Assembly: GCA_016707895.1 (NCBI GenBank) | Contig: JADJGV010000034.1 | Coordinates: 757,625 to 821,624 of the forward strand | Origin: Myxococcales bacterium | Lineage (GTDB): Bacteria > Myxococcota_A > Polyangia > Haliangiales > Haliangiaceae | Direction of reading: 5' to 3' | DNA: 64,000 nt | Shown here: positions 15,944 through 20,163 of the stretch, in pieces | How positions within the stretch are numbered: position 1 is the first letter of the stretch | Layout: each line of letters begins with the position of its first letter | The notes under the pieces: generated by a model | What the model was told of the DNA's origin: nothing | Seen by the model: the letters and a program-made list of their open reading frames with translations, nothing else | The model's database searches: none | Position numbers and translations under genes: made by a program

Positions 15944-17932
15944 TCAGCGGCTCTGGCCGCCGAGCTGGCGGCCCATCGACACGTACTCGATGCGGGCCGC
16001 GCGCAGCAGGTGCTGCTGGGCCACCGGCACGCCCTCGGCCGCGGCCAGGAACGCGCCGGCGATCGCCGCGTTGCGGATGTTGGCGCCGGTCATCTCCGGG
16101 TAGCGGGTGGCCAGCTCGTCGACGTCGAGGTCGTCGGCCACCGGCAGGTCGGGGTTGAGCATGCTCTTCCACAGCGCGACCCGCTCGTCGAGCTCGGGCG
16201 GCCAGAACCGCACGTGGCCGGCCAGGCGGCGCATCAGCGCCGGATCGATCGACTGATCGAGGTTGGTGGTGAGGATCGTGATGCCGCCGAACGCCTCGAC
16301 CCGCTGCAGCAGGTAGTTGACCTCGAGGTTGGCGTAGCGATCGACCGCGGCCTTGACCTCGGTGCGCTTGGCGAACAGCGCGTCGGCCTCGTCGAACAGC
16401 AGCAGCGCGTGGCCGGCGTCGGCGGCGTCGAAGATCTGCGCCAGCTGCTTCTCGGTCTCGCCGACCCACTTGCTCACCACCTTCGACAGGTCGACCTGGT
16501 ACAGCTCGAGCTCGAGCTGCCGCGCGATCAGCCCGGCGACCATGGTCTTGCCGGTGCCGGGCGGGCCCGAGAACAGCGCGGCCACGCCGCTGCCGCGGTG
16601 CAGCTTCTGCCCCAGCCGCCACTTCTCCAGCACGGTGTGGCCGTGCTGCACGCGGGCCGCCAGCGCGCGCACCTGATCGAGCGTGTCGGCGCCCAGCACC
16701 AGCTCGTCCCACGCCTGCTTGACCTCGACCCGCTGCGCCAGCCCGCCCATGCGCTCGGCGATGTTGTTGCGGATGCCGGCCACCACGTCGGGCAGCCGCG
16801 GCGCGTCGCTGGCGCCCAGCCGCCGCGCGGTCGTGATCGCCGCGCCGACGCCGCCGGGGCCGAGCTTGTAGCGCATCGCCAGGCGGTCGCGCTCGTCGGG
16901 CGTCACCGGCGCGTCGCCCAGCGCGCGATCCCACAGCGCGCGGCGGGTGGCCACCGGCGGCGTCGGCACCGACACCCGCACCAGCGGCCGCGCGATCGCG
17001 ACCTCGAGCCCGCGCTCGAGCGTCACCAGCGCGGCGGGGCCGGGCAGCGCGTCGAGGTGCTTGGCCAGGATCCGCGCCAGCGTCCGGTCGCCCTCGCGAT
17101 CGAGCTGATCGGCGCCGGCGATCACCGCGACCGCGCCGGTCAGCACCACCTCGCGGCCCAGCGCCGCCAGCGCGGCGTCGAGCGCGTCGACCCCGAGCGG
17201 CAGCCGGGCCAGATCGACGCCGATCGTGGGGCGGCCGGTGGCGGCGGCGGCGATCGCCACCGCGGTGCGCCGGCCGACGCCGGGCGAGCCGTCGAGCACC
17301 AGCACCGGCGGCGGCGCGCCGGCGAGCAGCGCGGTCAGCTGCGCGATCAGCGCGTCGCCGGCGGCGTCGACGAAGCGGTCGGCCGGCGGCGCGATCACGC
17401 CGCCGACCGCCAGCACCTCGGCGTCGGGCGTGGGATCGCCGGCCAGGTACGCGGCCACCCGGGGCGCGGCCACGAACCGCCGCGCCGCCAGCGGCAGCGC
17501 GTCGGCGGCGACCAGCAGGTGGTGGCGCACCAGCGGCGACGCCGGGCCGATCGCCAGGCCCAGGCCCAGCGCGCGCTCGCCCTCGAGCTGCGCCAGCAGC
17601 GCGTGCAGGCCGACCGACGCGCCGCGCGCGGTGTCGCCGCCGCCCAGCCGCTGCAGGTGCGGCCACAGCCGCGGATCGGCGGTCATCGCCACCGCGGTCC
17701 ACAGGAAGTCGAGCTCGTCCGGGCCCAGCTCCAGCCGGCGGGCCAGCGCGCCGTCGCGGGCGCCGACCGCGGTCTCGATCAGCGTGGCCTCGACCGCCGC
17801 CAGCTGGGCGTCGAGCACCGCCAGGTGGTCGTCGCGGCGCGGCGTCGATCCCAGCTCGATCGCGCGGATCGCCCGCAGCCGCACCCGCTCGATCGCCGCC
17901 ATGTACCGTGCGGCGGTCGCCGGATTCGCCAT
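15944..17932 (-). CDS. Two-domain AAA+ ATPase (degenerate N-terminal domain plus canonical C-terminal AAA domain)
   Basis: The C-terminal domain has Walker A (GPPGTGKT), Walker B (LLFDEAD), a second region of homology and the sensor Arg typical of classical AAA proteins. The N-terminal domain retains a degenerate P-loop (GSPGVGRR). It is divergently arranged with the DUF4157 gene. Confidence 0.8.
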
Positions 17933-17996
17933 GCCTGACGGTCGTATAGGCGGTCGGCCAGGTCAACGGGGAGGAACCGGCCGCGCGCACCGTATT

Positions 17997-19577
17997 ATGA
18001 GCGCCATGTCCTCCGATCGCGAGCTCGCCCACCGCCACGACGCCGACCACGATCCGCGCAAGCGCCCGGCCGACCGCGAGGCCGCGGACGCGCCGCCGCC
18101 CGACCTCGCCGGCGTGGTCCAGGCCAAGGCCGACGGCGGCCGGGTCGCGCTGACCGGCGACCAGGACGTCCGGGCCGCCGCCGCCACCGGCGTGCAGTCG
18201 GGCGGCAGCCAGCTGCCGCACCTCGACAAGATCCAGGCGTCGTTCGGCGGCGCCCACGATCTGTCCGGCGTGCGCGCCCACGTCGGCGGCGAGGCGGCCG
18301 CCGCCAGCGCCCAGATGGGGGCCCAGGGCTACGCCACCGGCTCCGACGTCGCGTTCGCCCAGCAGCCCGATCTGTTCCTCGCCGCCCACGAGGCCGCCCA
18401 CGTCGTGCAGCAGCGAGAGGGCGTGCAGATGAAGGGCGGCGTCGGCCAGGCCGGCGACGTCTACGAGCAGCACGCCGACAAGGTCGCCGAGCGCGTCGTC
18501 GCCGGGCAGTCGGCGGCCGATCTGCTGCCGGCGTCGGCCGGCGGCAGCGGCGGCGCGGTGCAGATGTACAACGAGAAGGTCATCAGCGGCGAGGCCTGGC
18601 GGGTCTCGGAGTCGGGCAAGTCGATGCTGAAGGAGGAGGACAAGCTCCAGGATCTGTTCGCGACCAACGATCTGATCGCGACCGCCAACGCCGCGCTCAA
18701 GACCGCCGGCGACAAGGGCTCGTTCATCTCGCTCAAGGCCGGCGCGGCGTCGCTGAAGGTCGGTGAGAACACCCTGCACCGCGTCGAGCCGGTGATGAAC
18801 CCGACCGGCACCGACGCCGCCAACGACATCCTGCGCGAGGCCAACAAGGACGGCGCCGAGGACAGCGCCGGCGAGACCGACGACTCGATGGCGCTGTGGG
18901 CCGACTGCGGCCGGTCGTCGCGCACCATCATGGGCACCGACGGCCAGGGCCAGGCGCCGCACGCGAAGTACAAGGACGGCGGCGGCACCGCCACCACCGG
19001 ACGCTCGTACAACCCGGCCACCTACTCCGACGAGATCTACCTCAAGGAGGTGCCCAAGTTCCTGAAGAGCGCCGAGGCCGCGGCCTACCTGAAGGACGGG
19101 GTGCACTACGACGCCGGCGACAAGACCGCGCTCAAGACGCCGACCACGGCGGACGAGGCGCGCGCGATGTACTGGGAGCTGGGCGAGGACGGCCGCCGTG
19201 CGTTCGACAAGTTCGCGGGCATCAACACCGCGGCCGATCCGGCGATCGGCGGCGCGTACACGATGAACACCGAGTACAAGATGCCGGGCTCCGGCGTGGT
19301 GCCCGGCAAGAAGCGCTGGAACTTCCACTGGGGCGGCGTGATCCTGAAGGACGGCAGCAACAACGTCACGCTCGAGAACTACGCGGTCGGCTTCGCCGCG
19401 ACCGGCGACGCGGCCAAGGACGCGGAGAACCGCAAGCGCGCGTACGACTGGGTCAACCACGACTGGAACTTTCAGATGTACGGTACGGCCAAGAAGGGCC
19501 AGAGCTTCCATGAAGAGCACCTCGACACCGGGACCCACGGCACCCGGGCCAGCACGTTCGCCGCGCAGGTCGACTAG
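17997..19577 (+). CDS. DUF4157 (zincin-like HExxH metallopeptidase) protein with a large C-terminal domain of unknown function; putative toxin or effector
   Basis: The N-terminal region matches the DUF4157 pattern ([19 protein letters not shown] ... [29 protein letters not shown]). The C-terminal roughly 330 aa are K/N/Y/W-rich, are not recognisable, and contain Cys and His candidates (LWADCGRSS). Start candidates are ATG 17997 and ATG 18006, both in frame. GGAGG lies about 20 nt upstream of 17997. Confidence 0.75.
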
Positions 19578-19580
19578 TGT

Positions 19581-19648
19581 CCTTCGAGGGCTTGTCGCCA
19601 AGCCCTCCCCCATGGGGTCATGCCCCCATGGGGCCCCCTCCCAAGACG
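19581..19648. repeat. Intergenic palindromic element, copy A (reverse orientation relative to copy B)
   Basis: AGGGCTTG-TCGC-CAAGCCCT hairpin followed by CCCCATGGGG-TCATG-CCCCCATGGGG. The reverse complement aligns along its length with the element at 56864..56930, with paired substitutions that preserve both palindromes. Confidence 0.65.
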
Positions 19649-20163
19649 CGAGACTCCCGGCGCCACGTGGCGGCGTGCTCGTGCTCGCGCTCGCGCTGAT
19701 GCTCGCCGCGTGCAACGGTTCGAGCTCACGCGGCGGCGAGCCGACGGTGGCCCGGCCGTCGAGCGCGGACGCCGCCGCGGCGATCGTCGCCCCTTCCACC
19801 GAGGACGCCATGCAGGAACCCACGCTCCCCGTCATCCGCGCCGTCACCGACGTGGCCGCGCACTTCGGCGCCCGGGTCGAGGCCCACGGCACCTACGCCG
19901 TGCTGTCGACCGGCCGCCACAAGATCATGTACACCCGCGCCGACGGCTCGACCGGCGCTACCAACAAGGTGGCGCAGCTGGCGCTCGACGGCGGCGGCGC
20001 GATCGAGCTGTGGGTGCGTCCCGACGACGAGCTGGCCACGCTGGGCGGCAAGCGCGTCGTGGTGATCGGCAAGCTCGTGCCGCCCGCCGCGGAGGCCGAC
20101 GGCGTCGCCGCGCCCGACGGCGGGCCGAGCCTGGTCGAGATCAGCTCGGTCGCCGCCGAGTAG
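19612..20163 (+). CDS. Lipoprotein immediately downstream of the DUF4157 gene; candidate immunity protein
   Basis: A lipobox (LALALMLAACNGSS) is preceded by Arg residues. The start is uncertain: ATG 19612 lies inside the repeat element, and GTG 19675 is the alternative. The mature part is about 150 aa with no recognised domain. Confidence 0.5.
   Translation: MGSCPHGAPSQDARLPAPRGGVLVLALALMLAACNGSSSRGGEPTVARPSSADAAAAIVAPSTEDAMQEPTLPVIRAVTDVAAHFGARVEAHGTYAVLSTGRHKIMYTRADGSTGATNKVAQLALDGGGAIELWVRPDDELATLGGKRVVVIGKLVPPAAEADGVAAPDGGPSLVEISSVAAE

Follow-up and report, generated by a model that had tools for sequence, protein, structure and literature searches.

A putative contractile-injection-type loader ATPase travels with a DUF4157 toxin and its candidate immunity lipoprotein in Myxococcota

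A 64-kb stretch of DNA from a Myxococcales bacterium (contig JADJGV010000034.1; hereafter, the window) contains three adjacent genes: a two-ring AAA+ ATPase on the minus strand, a divergently oriented gene for a predicted toxin with a DUF4157 domain (hereafter, the toxin) and, following it, a lipoprotein gene. All three lie where a first-pass annotation of this DNA had placed them (Table 1). Their products belong to the known world of polymorphic toxins of contractile injection systems (CIS) and extracellular CIS (eCIS). Our preferred interpretation, to which we assign a probability of roughly 0.55, is that these genes form a detached loader, cargo and immunity cassette of this "PVC-type" kind, serving a CIS encoded elsewhere in the genome. 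New elements are the detached and recurrent loader-toxin-immunity cassette, an unannotated family of papain-like toxins and the immunity family that goes with it. Either the cassette is a satellite ammunition module for a machine elsewhere, or it hints that the loader works without a machine.

The loader-type ATPase and the recurrence of the cassette

Pfam AAA (PF00004) matches residues 453–575 of the ATPase (E = 1.1e-26), and an N-terminal winged-helix region is recognized by the model "WHD, variant" (PF22977, residues 45–174, E = 6.9e-07). The first ring is degenerate, with the Walker A lysine replaced by arginine (GSPGVGRRT), and the second ring looks active (GPPGTGKT and DEAD). A degenerate first ring combined with a catalytic second ring is the pattern described for Pvc15 (PMC11495950). 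When plasmids were searched with tblastn, homologs about 36–41% identical over the C-terminal 60% of the query were found, and all four of the homolog regions that we opened, from Halogeometricum (pHBOR03), Nostoc, Deinococcus and Streptomyces, are annotated CIS clusters containing DUF4255, sheath, tube, gp25, baseplate and VgrG genes. A profile of these four CIS-embedded ATPases matches the window ATPase at 424 bits (query positions 56–665), with the N-terminal region and first ring included; pairwise identities are 32–40% (32% over 658 amino acids for Nostoc, 38% over 606 for Streptomyces). In contrast, generic AAA models match only residues ~440–650, with 129 bits for Cdc48/VCP, 65 bits for FtsH (NCBIfam) and 103–105 bits for IetA. 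Because the match to the CIS-embedded ATPases runs from end to end and the generic matches cover the second ring only, the protein is, by its sequence, a CIS-type loader (Pvc15/Afp15/Alg15 type) and not a housekeeping ATPase. As candidate identities, the housekeeping proteins Cdc48, FtsH and PAN were rejected, their matches being confined to the second ring at 129 bits or fewer. Clustering with housekeeping AAA proteins, the outcome that the first-pass annotation had named as speaking against its proposal, is therefore not what we find.

Within the window, this ATPase is not encoded inside a sheath/tube/baseplate cluster. We built custom profiles from the sheath, tube, DUF4255, gp25, baseplate-J, VgrG, PAAR and tail proteins of the four annotated CIS clusters, and none of them matched any six-frame open reading frame (ORF) of at least 50 amino acids in the 64 kb. 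Since these profiles pick up baseplate genes elsewhere, in the unrelated loci L071 and L076 (below), they have some reach. Pfam scans of 81 window ORFs and of the genes called within ±10 kb returned only housekeeping and regulatory families, among them MetH, PALP/CBS, RF3, Maf, ProC, enoyl-CoA hydratase and a sigma-54 two-component pair. The 81-ORF scan covers the best 25 of 67 families, such that a weak lone tube or gp25 match could hide, although the custom profiles argue against this. Together, profiles and Pfam scans bear out the earlier claim that phage-tail-like genes are absent from the window.

How widespread is this arrangement? A scan of a genome collection yielded 80 DUF4157 loci (L005–L084), mostly from Myxococcota and often several per genome, 12 of which have a clear ATPase homolog in the retrieved stretch. 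The complete three-gene cassette recurs in two other Myxococcota genomes, one from the Kofleriaceae (L005) and one another Myxococcales metagenome-assembled genome (MAG; L089), where the ATPase is kept at 68–73% and the toxin at 55–60% identity. When positions 5–32 kb of the window were compared with these two loci by tblastx, similarity was restricted to ~15957–20151 and the flanks were unrelated. Both cassettes, the closest orthologous sets, sit among unrelated housekeeping genes (ligA, znuA, thiC and nadA in the case of L089). The divergent layout of ATPase and DUF4157 genes is found in both, in a Coleofasciculus MAG (L072) and in the Halogeometricum CIS cluster.

Among the twelve ATPase loci, the custom CIS profiles matched L071 only; L076, which has no ATPase, was matched as well. 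Three further ATPase homologs on long contigs (L089–L091) have housekeeping surroundings, as judged from precomputed Pfam annotation and the custom profiles. A Pfam scan of 122 neighboring ORFs at ten ATPase loci revealed no recurrent CIS family, and a direct scan of the neighbors in L061 and L072 revealed no CIS family. Thus, of 15 related ATPase loci, 14 are free of CIS structural genes within 10 kb or as far as the retrieved sequence extends. This count includes three loci truncated at contig ends (L030, L036 and L079) and comes from a sample skewed toward relatives of this DUF4157 domain. The first-pass annotation had allowed that orthologous pairs might always be embedded in complete CIS loci, leaving this copy a fragment. 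The housekeeping surroundings of L005 and L089, together with this count, show otherwise. Clustering of ~975 ORFs from 81 DUF4157 loci (L001 and L005–L084) gave no recurrent neighbor besides the ATPase and lineage-typical genes, the latter encoding Ser/Thr kinases, Cys-rich repeat (MopE-like) proteins and ABC ATPases. In a neighbor-joining sketch, a tree that is not robust, the ATPases of the Myxococcota cassettes fall into a few clades.

Individual loci differ in what accompanies the ATPase. In two Myxococcota loci with housekeeping surroundings, ATPases 52–54% identical to that of the window lie beside proteins without DUF4157, a 433-amino-acid phospholipase-like protein (PF26363; L091, 10001–13377) and a 215-amino-acid protein of no named family (L090, 10001–12658), which suggests that the ATPase may pair with other effector types. 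In the Coleofasciculus MAG (L072, 4277–11209), the ATPase gene is divergent from a DUF4157 gene, and genes for a WG-repeat protein and a DUF4157-Ntox6 toxin come next; this locus adjoins the isoleucyl-tRNA synthetase gene and has no CIS gene within 10 kb. In a Rhodocyclaceae locus (L071), a 29%-identical toxin homolog and its immunity gene directly follow ATPase and baseplate genes, an arrangement that ties the toxin family to CIS. A literature search, whose coverage was incomplete, found no description of detached ATPase-toxin cassettes.

DUF4157 genes can also be numerous or clustered. At least four DUF4157 loci are present in MAG CALKVT, the 9.29-Mb chromosome OW818691.1 carries two loci separated by 1.5 Mb, and in at least seven loci two DUF4157 genes lie within 10 kb.

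The DUF4157 toxin and its immunity partner

An AlphaFold model of the 526-amino-acid toxin, made with 60 homologs, has a mean predicted local distance difference test score (pLDDT) of 87 and consists of a disordered stretch (residues 1–39), a compact domain (41–175), a low-confidence linker (181–188) and a very confidently predicted C-terminal part (190–526). In the leader, pLDDT is below 50 across residues 1–39, 18 of 40 residues are charged and there is no hydrophobic signal peptide. By analogy with AlgoCIS, in which cargo loading requires disordered N-terminal leaders (bioRxiv 10.64898/2026.05.27.728243), the leader is a candidate loading signal for the ATPase.

The compact domain contains a significant match to DUF4157 (PF13699, residues 79–142, E = 7.8e-13), a family now named eCIS_core, and the match reported in the first-pass annotation is thus genuine. 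Its HExxHxxQ zincin motif is intact (HEAAHVVQQ, with H131, E132, H135 and Q138) and is joined by E157; H131, E132 and H135 are invariant across the 60 homologs. The best structural match of the domain is to the effector domain of VgrG2b. In having a DUF4157 domain with HExxHxxQ...E positioned N-terminal to a variable toxin domain, a disordered leader and no Sec signal, the protein carries the signature of CIS cargo toxins. It departs from most of them in location: 88% of the known toxins used by Danov et al. have an eCIS operon no more than about ten genes away (PMC11297309), and the window contains no eCIS core gene.

The C-terminal region, described initially as a domain of roughly 330 amino acids, indeed behaves as a separate domain: modeled alone, residues 190–526 reach a pLDDT of 91.8 and a predicted template modeling score (pTM) of 0.90. 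Five residues (C304, H444, E460, H508 and H514) are invariant in the 60 homologs; among 100 further diverse representatives, H444 and E460 are again invariant and the cysteine is at least 90% conserved. In the model, C304 lies at the N terminus of a helix, H444 opens the next strand and E460 ends the strand that follows, a placement that corresponds to the canonical order of the papain clan. A papain/CHAP-like core with a Cys-His-Glu triad is predicted with high confidence, and we conclude that the domain is a predicted Cys-His-Glu amide-bond hydrolase or transferase. The modeled fold is compatible with a peptidoglycan amidase or endopeptidase, or with a protein deamidase or transglutaminase, and does not settle which; the leading candidate for its target would be peptidoglycan or its precursors.

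For 17 members of this domain family, there was no Pfam match even at E ≤ 1, and neither a single sequence nor a profile gave a useful sequence match in the PDB. A Foldseek search of the PDB with the full-length toxin model found no significant match. With CHAP and NlpC/P60 proteins, the domain therefore shares a papain-like core with conserved residues and no sequence match to the family models. An exhaustive profile search collected 1350 representative clusters at 50% identity, 942 of them at E ≤ 1e-10, and in these proteins, of 350–650 amino acids, the domain is almost always C-terminal. eCIS_core is fused to it in 53 of 100 diverse representatives, and PAAR, Rhs, VgrG, T5SS and T7SS delivery domains in none of the 100, so the domain appears tied to the DUF4157 delivery context. 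It represents a new, large, unannotated family of toxin domains that is probably catalytic. A version without DUF4157 is found in Roseobacter (L008, 10001–11376), where it is 42% identical to residues 200–523 and is still followed by an immunity homolog.

The ORF of the downstream lipoprotein spans 19510–20163, with a probable start at ATG 19612 or GTG 19681. Public gene calls begin at 19681, and ATG 19612 gives the more typical signal peptide. The N terminus reads ...VLVLALALMLAAC, with an LAAC lipobox whose cysteine is encoded at 19711–19713, and the window copy (...RGGVLVLALALMLAAC) conforms to the pattern [LVI][ASTVI][GAS]C. Lipoboxes, which we read from the sequences and not with a dedicated predictor, are also present in the L005, L007, L012 and L089 copies.

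Is the lipoprotein an immunity protein, as the first-pass annotation had proposed? Each retrieved gene that carries this C-terminal domain (10/10) is directly followed by a gene for a small protein, and these small proteins share a sequence pattern. A profile made from seven of them recovered in addition those of L005, L012 and L089, which were outside the training set, and had no significant match elsewhere among the 87 related loci scanned, including DUF4157 genes with other C-terminal domains. The lipoprotein matches no Pfam, NCBIfam or PADLOC family. Since the Roseobacter locus keeps the partner without DUF4157, the immunity family tracks the toxin domain and not the delivery domain. An adjacent downstream position and co-variation with the toxin domain are what is expected of a polymorphic-toxin immunity gene, and because of this strict co-occurrence, the assignment of the lipoprotein as the cognate immunity protein is well supported.

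The immunity family has two forms. Lipoboxes occur in the Myxococcota copies (window, L005, L012 and L089) and in L007, on a contig labeled "uncultured Enterobacterales." Copies from Thauera, Roseobacter, Rhodocyclaceae and L009 (loci L006, L008, L009, L041 and L071) have no signal peptide. This split implies different compartments for the same toxin/immunity pair and is part of the reason that we do not commit to an exclusively periplasmic target.

A conserved protein of ~93 amino acids, distinct by profile and thus rejected as a member of the immunity family, is encoded in L056 (7165–7485), L062 (11222–11497) and L078 (11174–11455). In L062 and L078 its gene lies between those of the DUF4157 toxin and the ATPase; the stretch retrieved for L056 contains no ATPase. 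This protein may represent another immunity or adaptor family.

Delivery of the toxin

If the cassette serves a CIS, how might it work? By analogy with PVC and AlgoCIS, the ATPase would recognize the disordered leader and hold the producer's toxin in a stable or unfolded state, and it could then thread the toxin into the tube of a CIS particle built from genes located elsewhere in the genome. The DUF4157 zincin may act as an accessory or processing peptidase. The C-terminal hydrolase would be the toxic part, attacking an amide bond in the target cell, and the lipoprotein would bind and neutralize this domain in the cell envelope, so that the producer and its kin are protected.

There is precedent for distant delivery. 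In Halogeometricum, DUF4157 toxins that are encoded with downstream immunity genes far from the CIS cluster are secreted in a sheath- and CIS-dependent manner (PMC11566945). Myxococcota carry eCIS loci (PMC12923769), eCIS are listed in 6 of 12 Myxococcus genomes (Geller et al.), and in Plesiocystis pacifica an eCIS is present on contig ABCS01000006 and a DUF4157 locus (L077) on ABCS01000122. Given the Halogeometricum precedent and the occurrence of eCIS in Myxococcota, a CIS elsewhere in the genome is the simpler reading, and the proposal in the first-pass annotation that the pair feeds a different export route found no evidence in its support. However, this precedent does not extend to a loader ATPase accompanying one toxin.

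Several observations weigh against our preferred interpretation. A separate loader beside a single toxin is unlike described CIS systems, and 14 of 15 ATPase loci have no CIS genes within 10 kb. In the source organism, our search covered the window, and no CIS structural gene was seen in its 64 kb. Immunity homologs without a signal peptide, as in Thauera, Roseobacter and Rhodocyclaceae, fit an envelope-only target poorly. In addition, Geller et al. list no eCIS in Haliangium (0/2 genomes) or Coleofasciculus (0/1), nor in Sorangium (0/19), Chondromyces (0/5) or Enhygromyxa (0/1). These genus tables describe other strains and a single detection method, and we take them as a lead rather than a test.

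One alternative, which we consider unlikely but worth pursuing, is that the cassette is independent of any CIS, with the ATPase unfolding or activating the toxin or handing it to vesicles, lysis release or an unrecognized translocon. This would be consistent with the conservation of the three genes as a unit in three Myxococcota genomes with unrelated flanks and with the scarcity of CIS genes near the related ATPases, which include those of L091 and L090 beside proteins lacking DUF4157 and that of the cyanobacterial L072. It would also fit the genus tables, since DUF4157-Ntox6 toxins occur in Haliangium and "Microcoleus" (Zhang et al., PMC3482391), genera for which (taking Coleofasciculus for the latter) no eCIS is listed, and in the Coleofasciculus genome the ATPase lies beside such a toxin. 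However, the ATPase is an end-to-end homolog of CIS-embedded ATPases, the only delivery domain to which the C-terminal domain family is fused is the CIS marker domain, one homolog of the family lies in a CIS cluster (L071), and neither neighborhood clustering nor Pfam scans found an alternative export component that recurs near the cassettes; the caution about strains and detection method applies here as well. A more general form of this idea, that Afp15/Pvc15-type ATPases have a life outside CIS as autonomous ATPase-toxin-immunity units for handling, activation or export in genomes without a phage-tail-like machine, and that such units are widespread in Myxococcota and present in a cyanobacterium, seems to us doubtful.

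Two other explanations are far less probable. Since the usual place of ATPase and DUF4157 genes is the edge of a CIS cluster, and no CIS structural gene is present in the window, the cassette could be what is left of a former eCIS locus that has decayed and lost its function. We regard this as very improbable because the three ORFs are intact, the second-ring Walker A and B motifs, HExxHxxQ and the Cys/His/Glu triad are preserved, codon usage is host-like and both ATPase and toxin are conserved in two genomes at different locations, in an arrangement that recurs widely. Least probable, in our view, is a role in anti-phage defense of the ATPase-plus-protease (Iet-like) type in place of an inter-bacterial toxin. 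The partner does have a metallopeptidase motif and the second ring does match IetA/IteA, but only over the generic AAA module (residues ~446–625) and, for IteA, at 104.9 bits against an NCBIfam cut-off of 510. The full-length match to the CIS-ATPase profile is far stronger, the partner proteins have no PADLOC match, and polymorphic toxins typically show such a strict pairing of toxin domain and immunity gene. The Iet system (IetA/IetS) was accordingly rejected as an identity for these genes, the match being below the family cut-off and no IetS partner being found by PADLOC.

Compared with characterized systems, the cassette is closest in architecture to AlgoCIS of Algoriphagus machipongonensis (Cgo1/Cgo2 and Alg15) and to PVC with Pvc15. 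As in these systems, the cargo consists of a disordered leader, DUF4157 and a variable C-terminal effector (498 amino acids in Cgo1, 526 in the window toxin), and the AAA+ loader has a degenerate first and an active second ring. In contrast to AlgoCIS and PVC, in which ATPase and cargo are encoded in or at the edge of the structural cluster, no such cluster lies in the 16 kb that the window covers on one side or in the 44 kb that it covers on the other; moreover, the C-terminal domain belongs to a different, unannotated family and a putative cognate immunity gene is present. The Halogeometricum borinquense CIS (pHBOR03) is similar in that Hbor_38900, a DUF4157 toxin, is divergent from the cluster ATPase and in that DUF4157 toxins have downstream immunity partners, dispersed toxins being secreted there via the distant CIS. 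However, its ATPase is part of the cluster and its chromosomal orphan pairs have no ATPase, whereas the window ATPase travels with toxin and immunity genes.

Similarities extend to other toxin systems. [quoted passage not shown] The window domain has no sequence relationship to Tae families and is ~3 times larger than Tae or CHAP domains. The PVC-metallopeptidase toxins of Zhang et al. (2012), which include Tox-NlpC/P60, Tox-PLC39, Tox-TGase and Tox-UCH, also combine a constant N-terminal metallopeptidase with a variable papain-like toxin. Deltaproteobacteria are among their hosts, and many PVC-type toxins have no adjacent immunity gene (PMC3482391). The window C-terminal domain, with its Cys-His-Glu triad and an immunity family of its own, differs from these toxins and matches none of their Pfam models.

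How CIS and eCIS choose and load their cargo is still being worked out, and protein-delivery tools are being developed from these particles. If loaders routinely duplicate and travel with single toxin/immunity pairs, cargo specificity may reside in dedicated loader-leader pairs, and such pairs would be ready-made orthogonal loading modules. If, instead, cassettes occur in genomes without a CIS, DUF4157 would no longer be a reliable CIS marker and there would be a new route of toxin handling to explain; autonomous units would represent a new delivery logic for DUF4157 polymorphic toxins. Regardless of the CIS question, the C-terminal domain adds a large, unannotated family of predicted cysteine-hydrolase toxins with an immunity family of its own.

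Layout, composition and flanking genes

The features of the cassette are listed in Table 1. The 64 bp separating the start codons of ATPase and toxin presumably contain control sequences that serve both genes.

Table 1. Features of the cassette, in window coordinates
Feature	Positions	Strand	Basis
AAA+ ATPase, CIS-type (Afp15/Pvc15/Alg15-like), 662 amino acids	15944–17932	-	Pfam AAA and WHD, CIS-ATPase profile
Divergent intergenic region, 64 bp, between ATPase and toxin start codons	17933–17996	.	coordinates
DUF4157 protein gene, whole, 526 amino acids	17997–19577	+	
Toxin leader, residues 1–40, candidate loading signal	17997–18116	+	AlphaFold pLDDT, composition
DUF4157/PVC-metallopeptidase zincin domain, toxin residues 41–175	18117–18521	+	intact HEAAHVVQQ
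Toxin C-terminal domain, residues 190–526 and stop codon, predicted papain/CHAP-like core	18564–19577	+	predicted structure, conserved triad
Predicted triad codons: Cys304; His444; Glu460	18906–18908; 19326–19328; 19374–19376	+	model and conservation
Putative immunity lipoprotein, alternative GTG start 19681	19612–20163	+	family profile, lipobox

The cassette lies 15.9 kb from one end of the window and 43.8 kb from the other. Its ATPase and toxin are identical to proteins of assemblies labeled "MAG: Myxococcales bacterium" (e.g., GCA_964269055.1), and the nearest named relatives are Kofleriaceae. The window has a G+C content of ~75%. In all three cassette genes, codon-position analysis gives a G+C content at third positions (GC3) of ~0.97, which is host-like and indicates that the cassette is not a recent import; recent horizontal acquisition, tested by codon position, was rejected on these grounds. 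Between 18001 and 20000, AT skew is 0.223, the second-highest value in the window, and G+C is 0.72, compared with a window mean of 0.75. In the toxin C-terminal domain, G+C is 0.60 at first codon positions and GC3 is 0.97; the lower G+C and the skew at 18–20 kb are due to the amino-acid composition of this domain. A search for flanking direct or inverted repeats around 14.8–21.3 kb found only low-identity, GC-rich chance matches.

Two flanking genes also encode potential lipoproteins. The ATPase gene is immediately followed, on its own strand, by a gene (15521–15817, minus) for a 98-amino-acid, Cys-rich putative lipoprotein with an LVLAAAC lipobox; it has no Pfam, NCBIfam or PADLOC family and lies outside the conserved cassette. 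Directly after the cassette, on the opposite strand (20194–21159, minus), is a gene that is not conserved beside the cassette in L005 or L089. It encodes a 321-amino-acid protein with a lipoprotein-like signal (LSLVVAC). The protein also matches PF03712 (E = 1.1e-21), the C-terminal domain of copper type II ascorbate-dependent monooxygenases; such PHM/DBH-like domains are unusual in bacteria.

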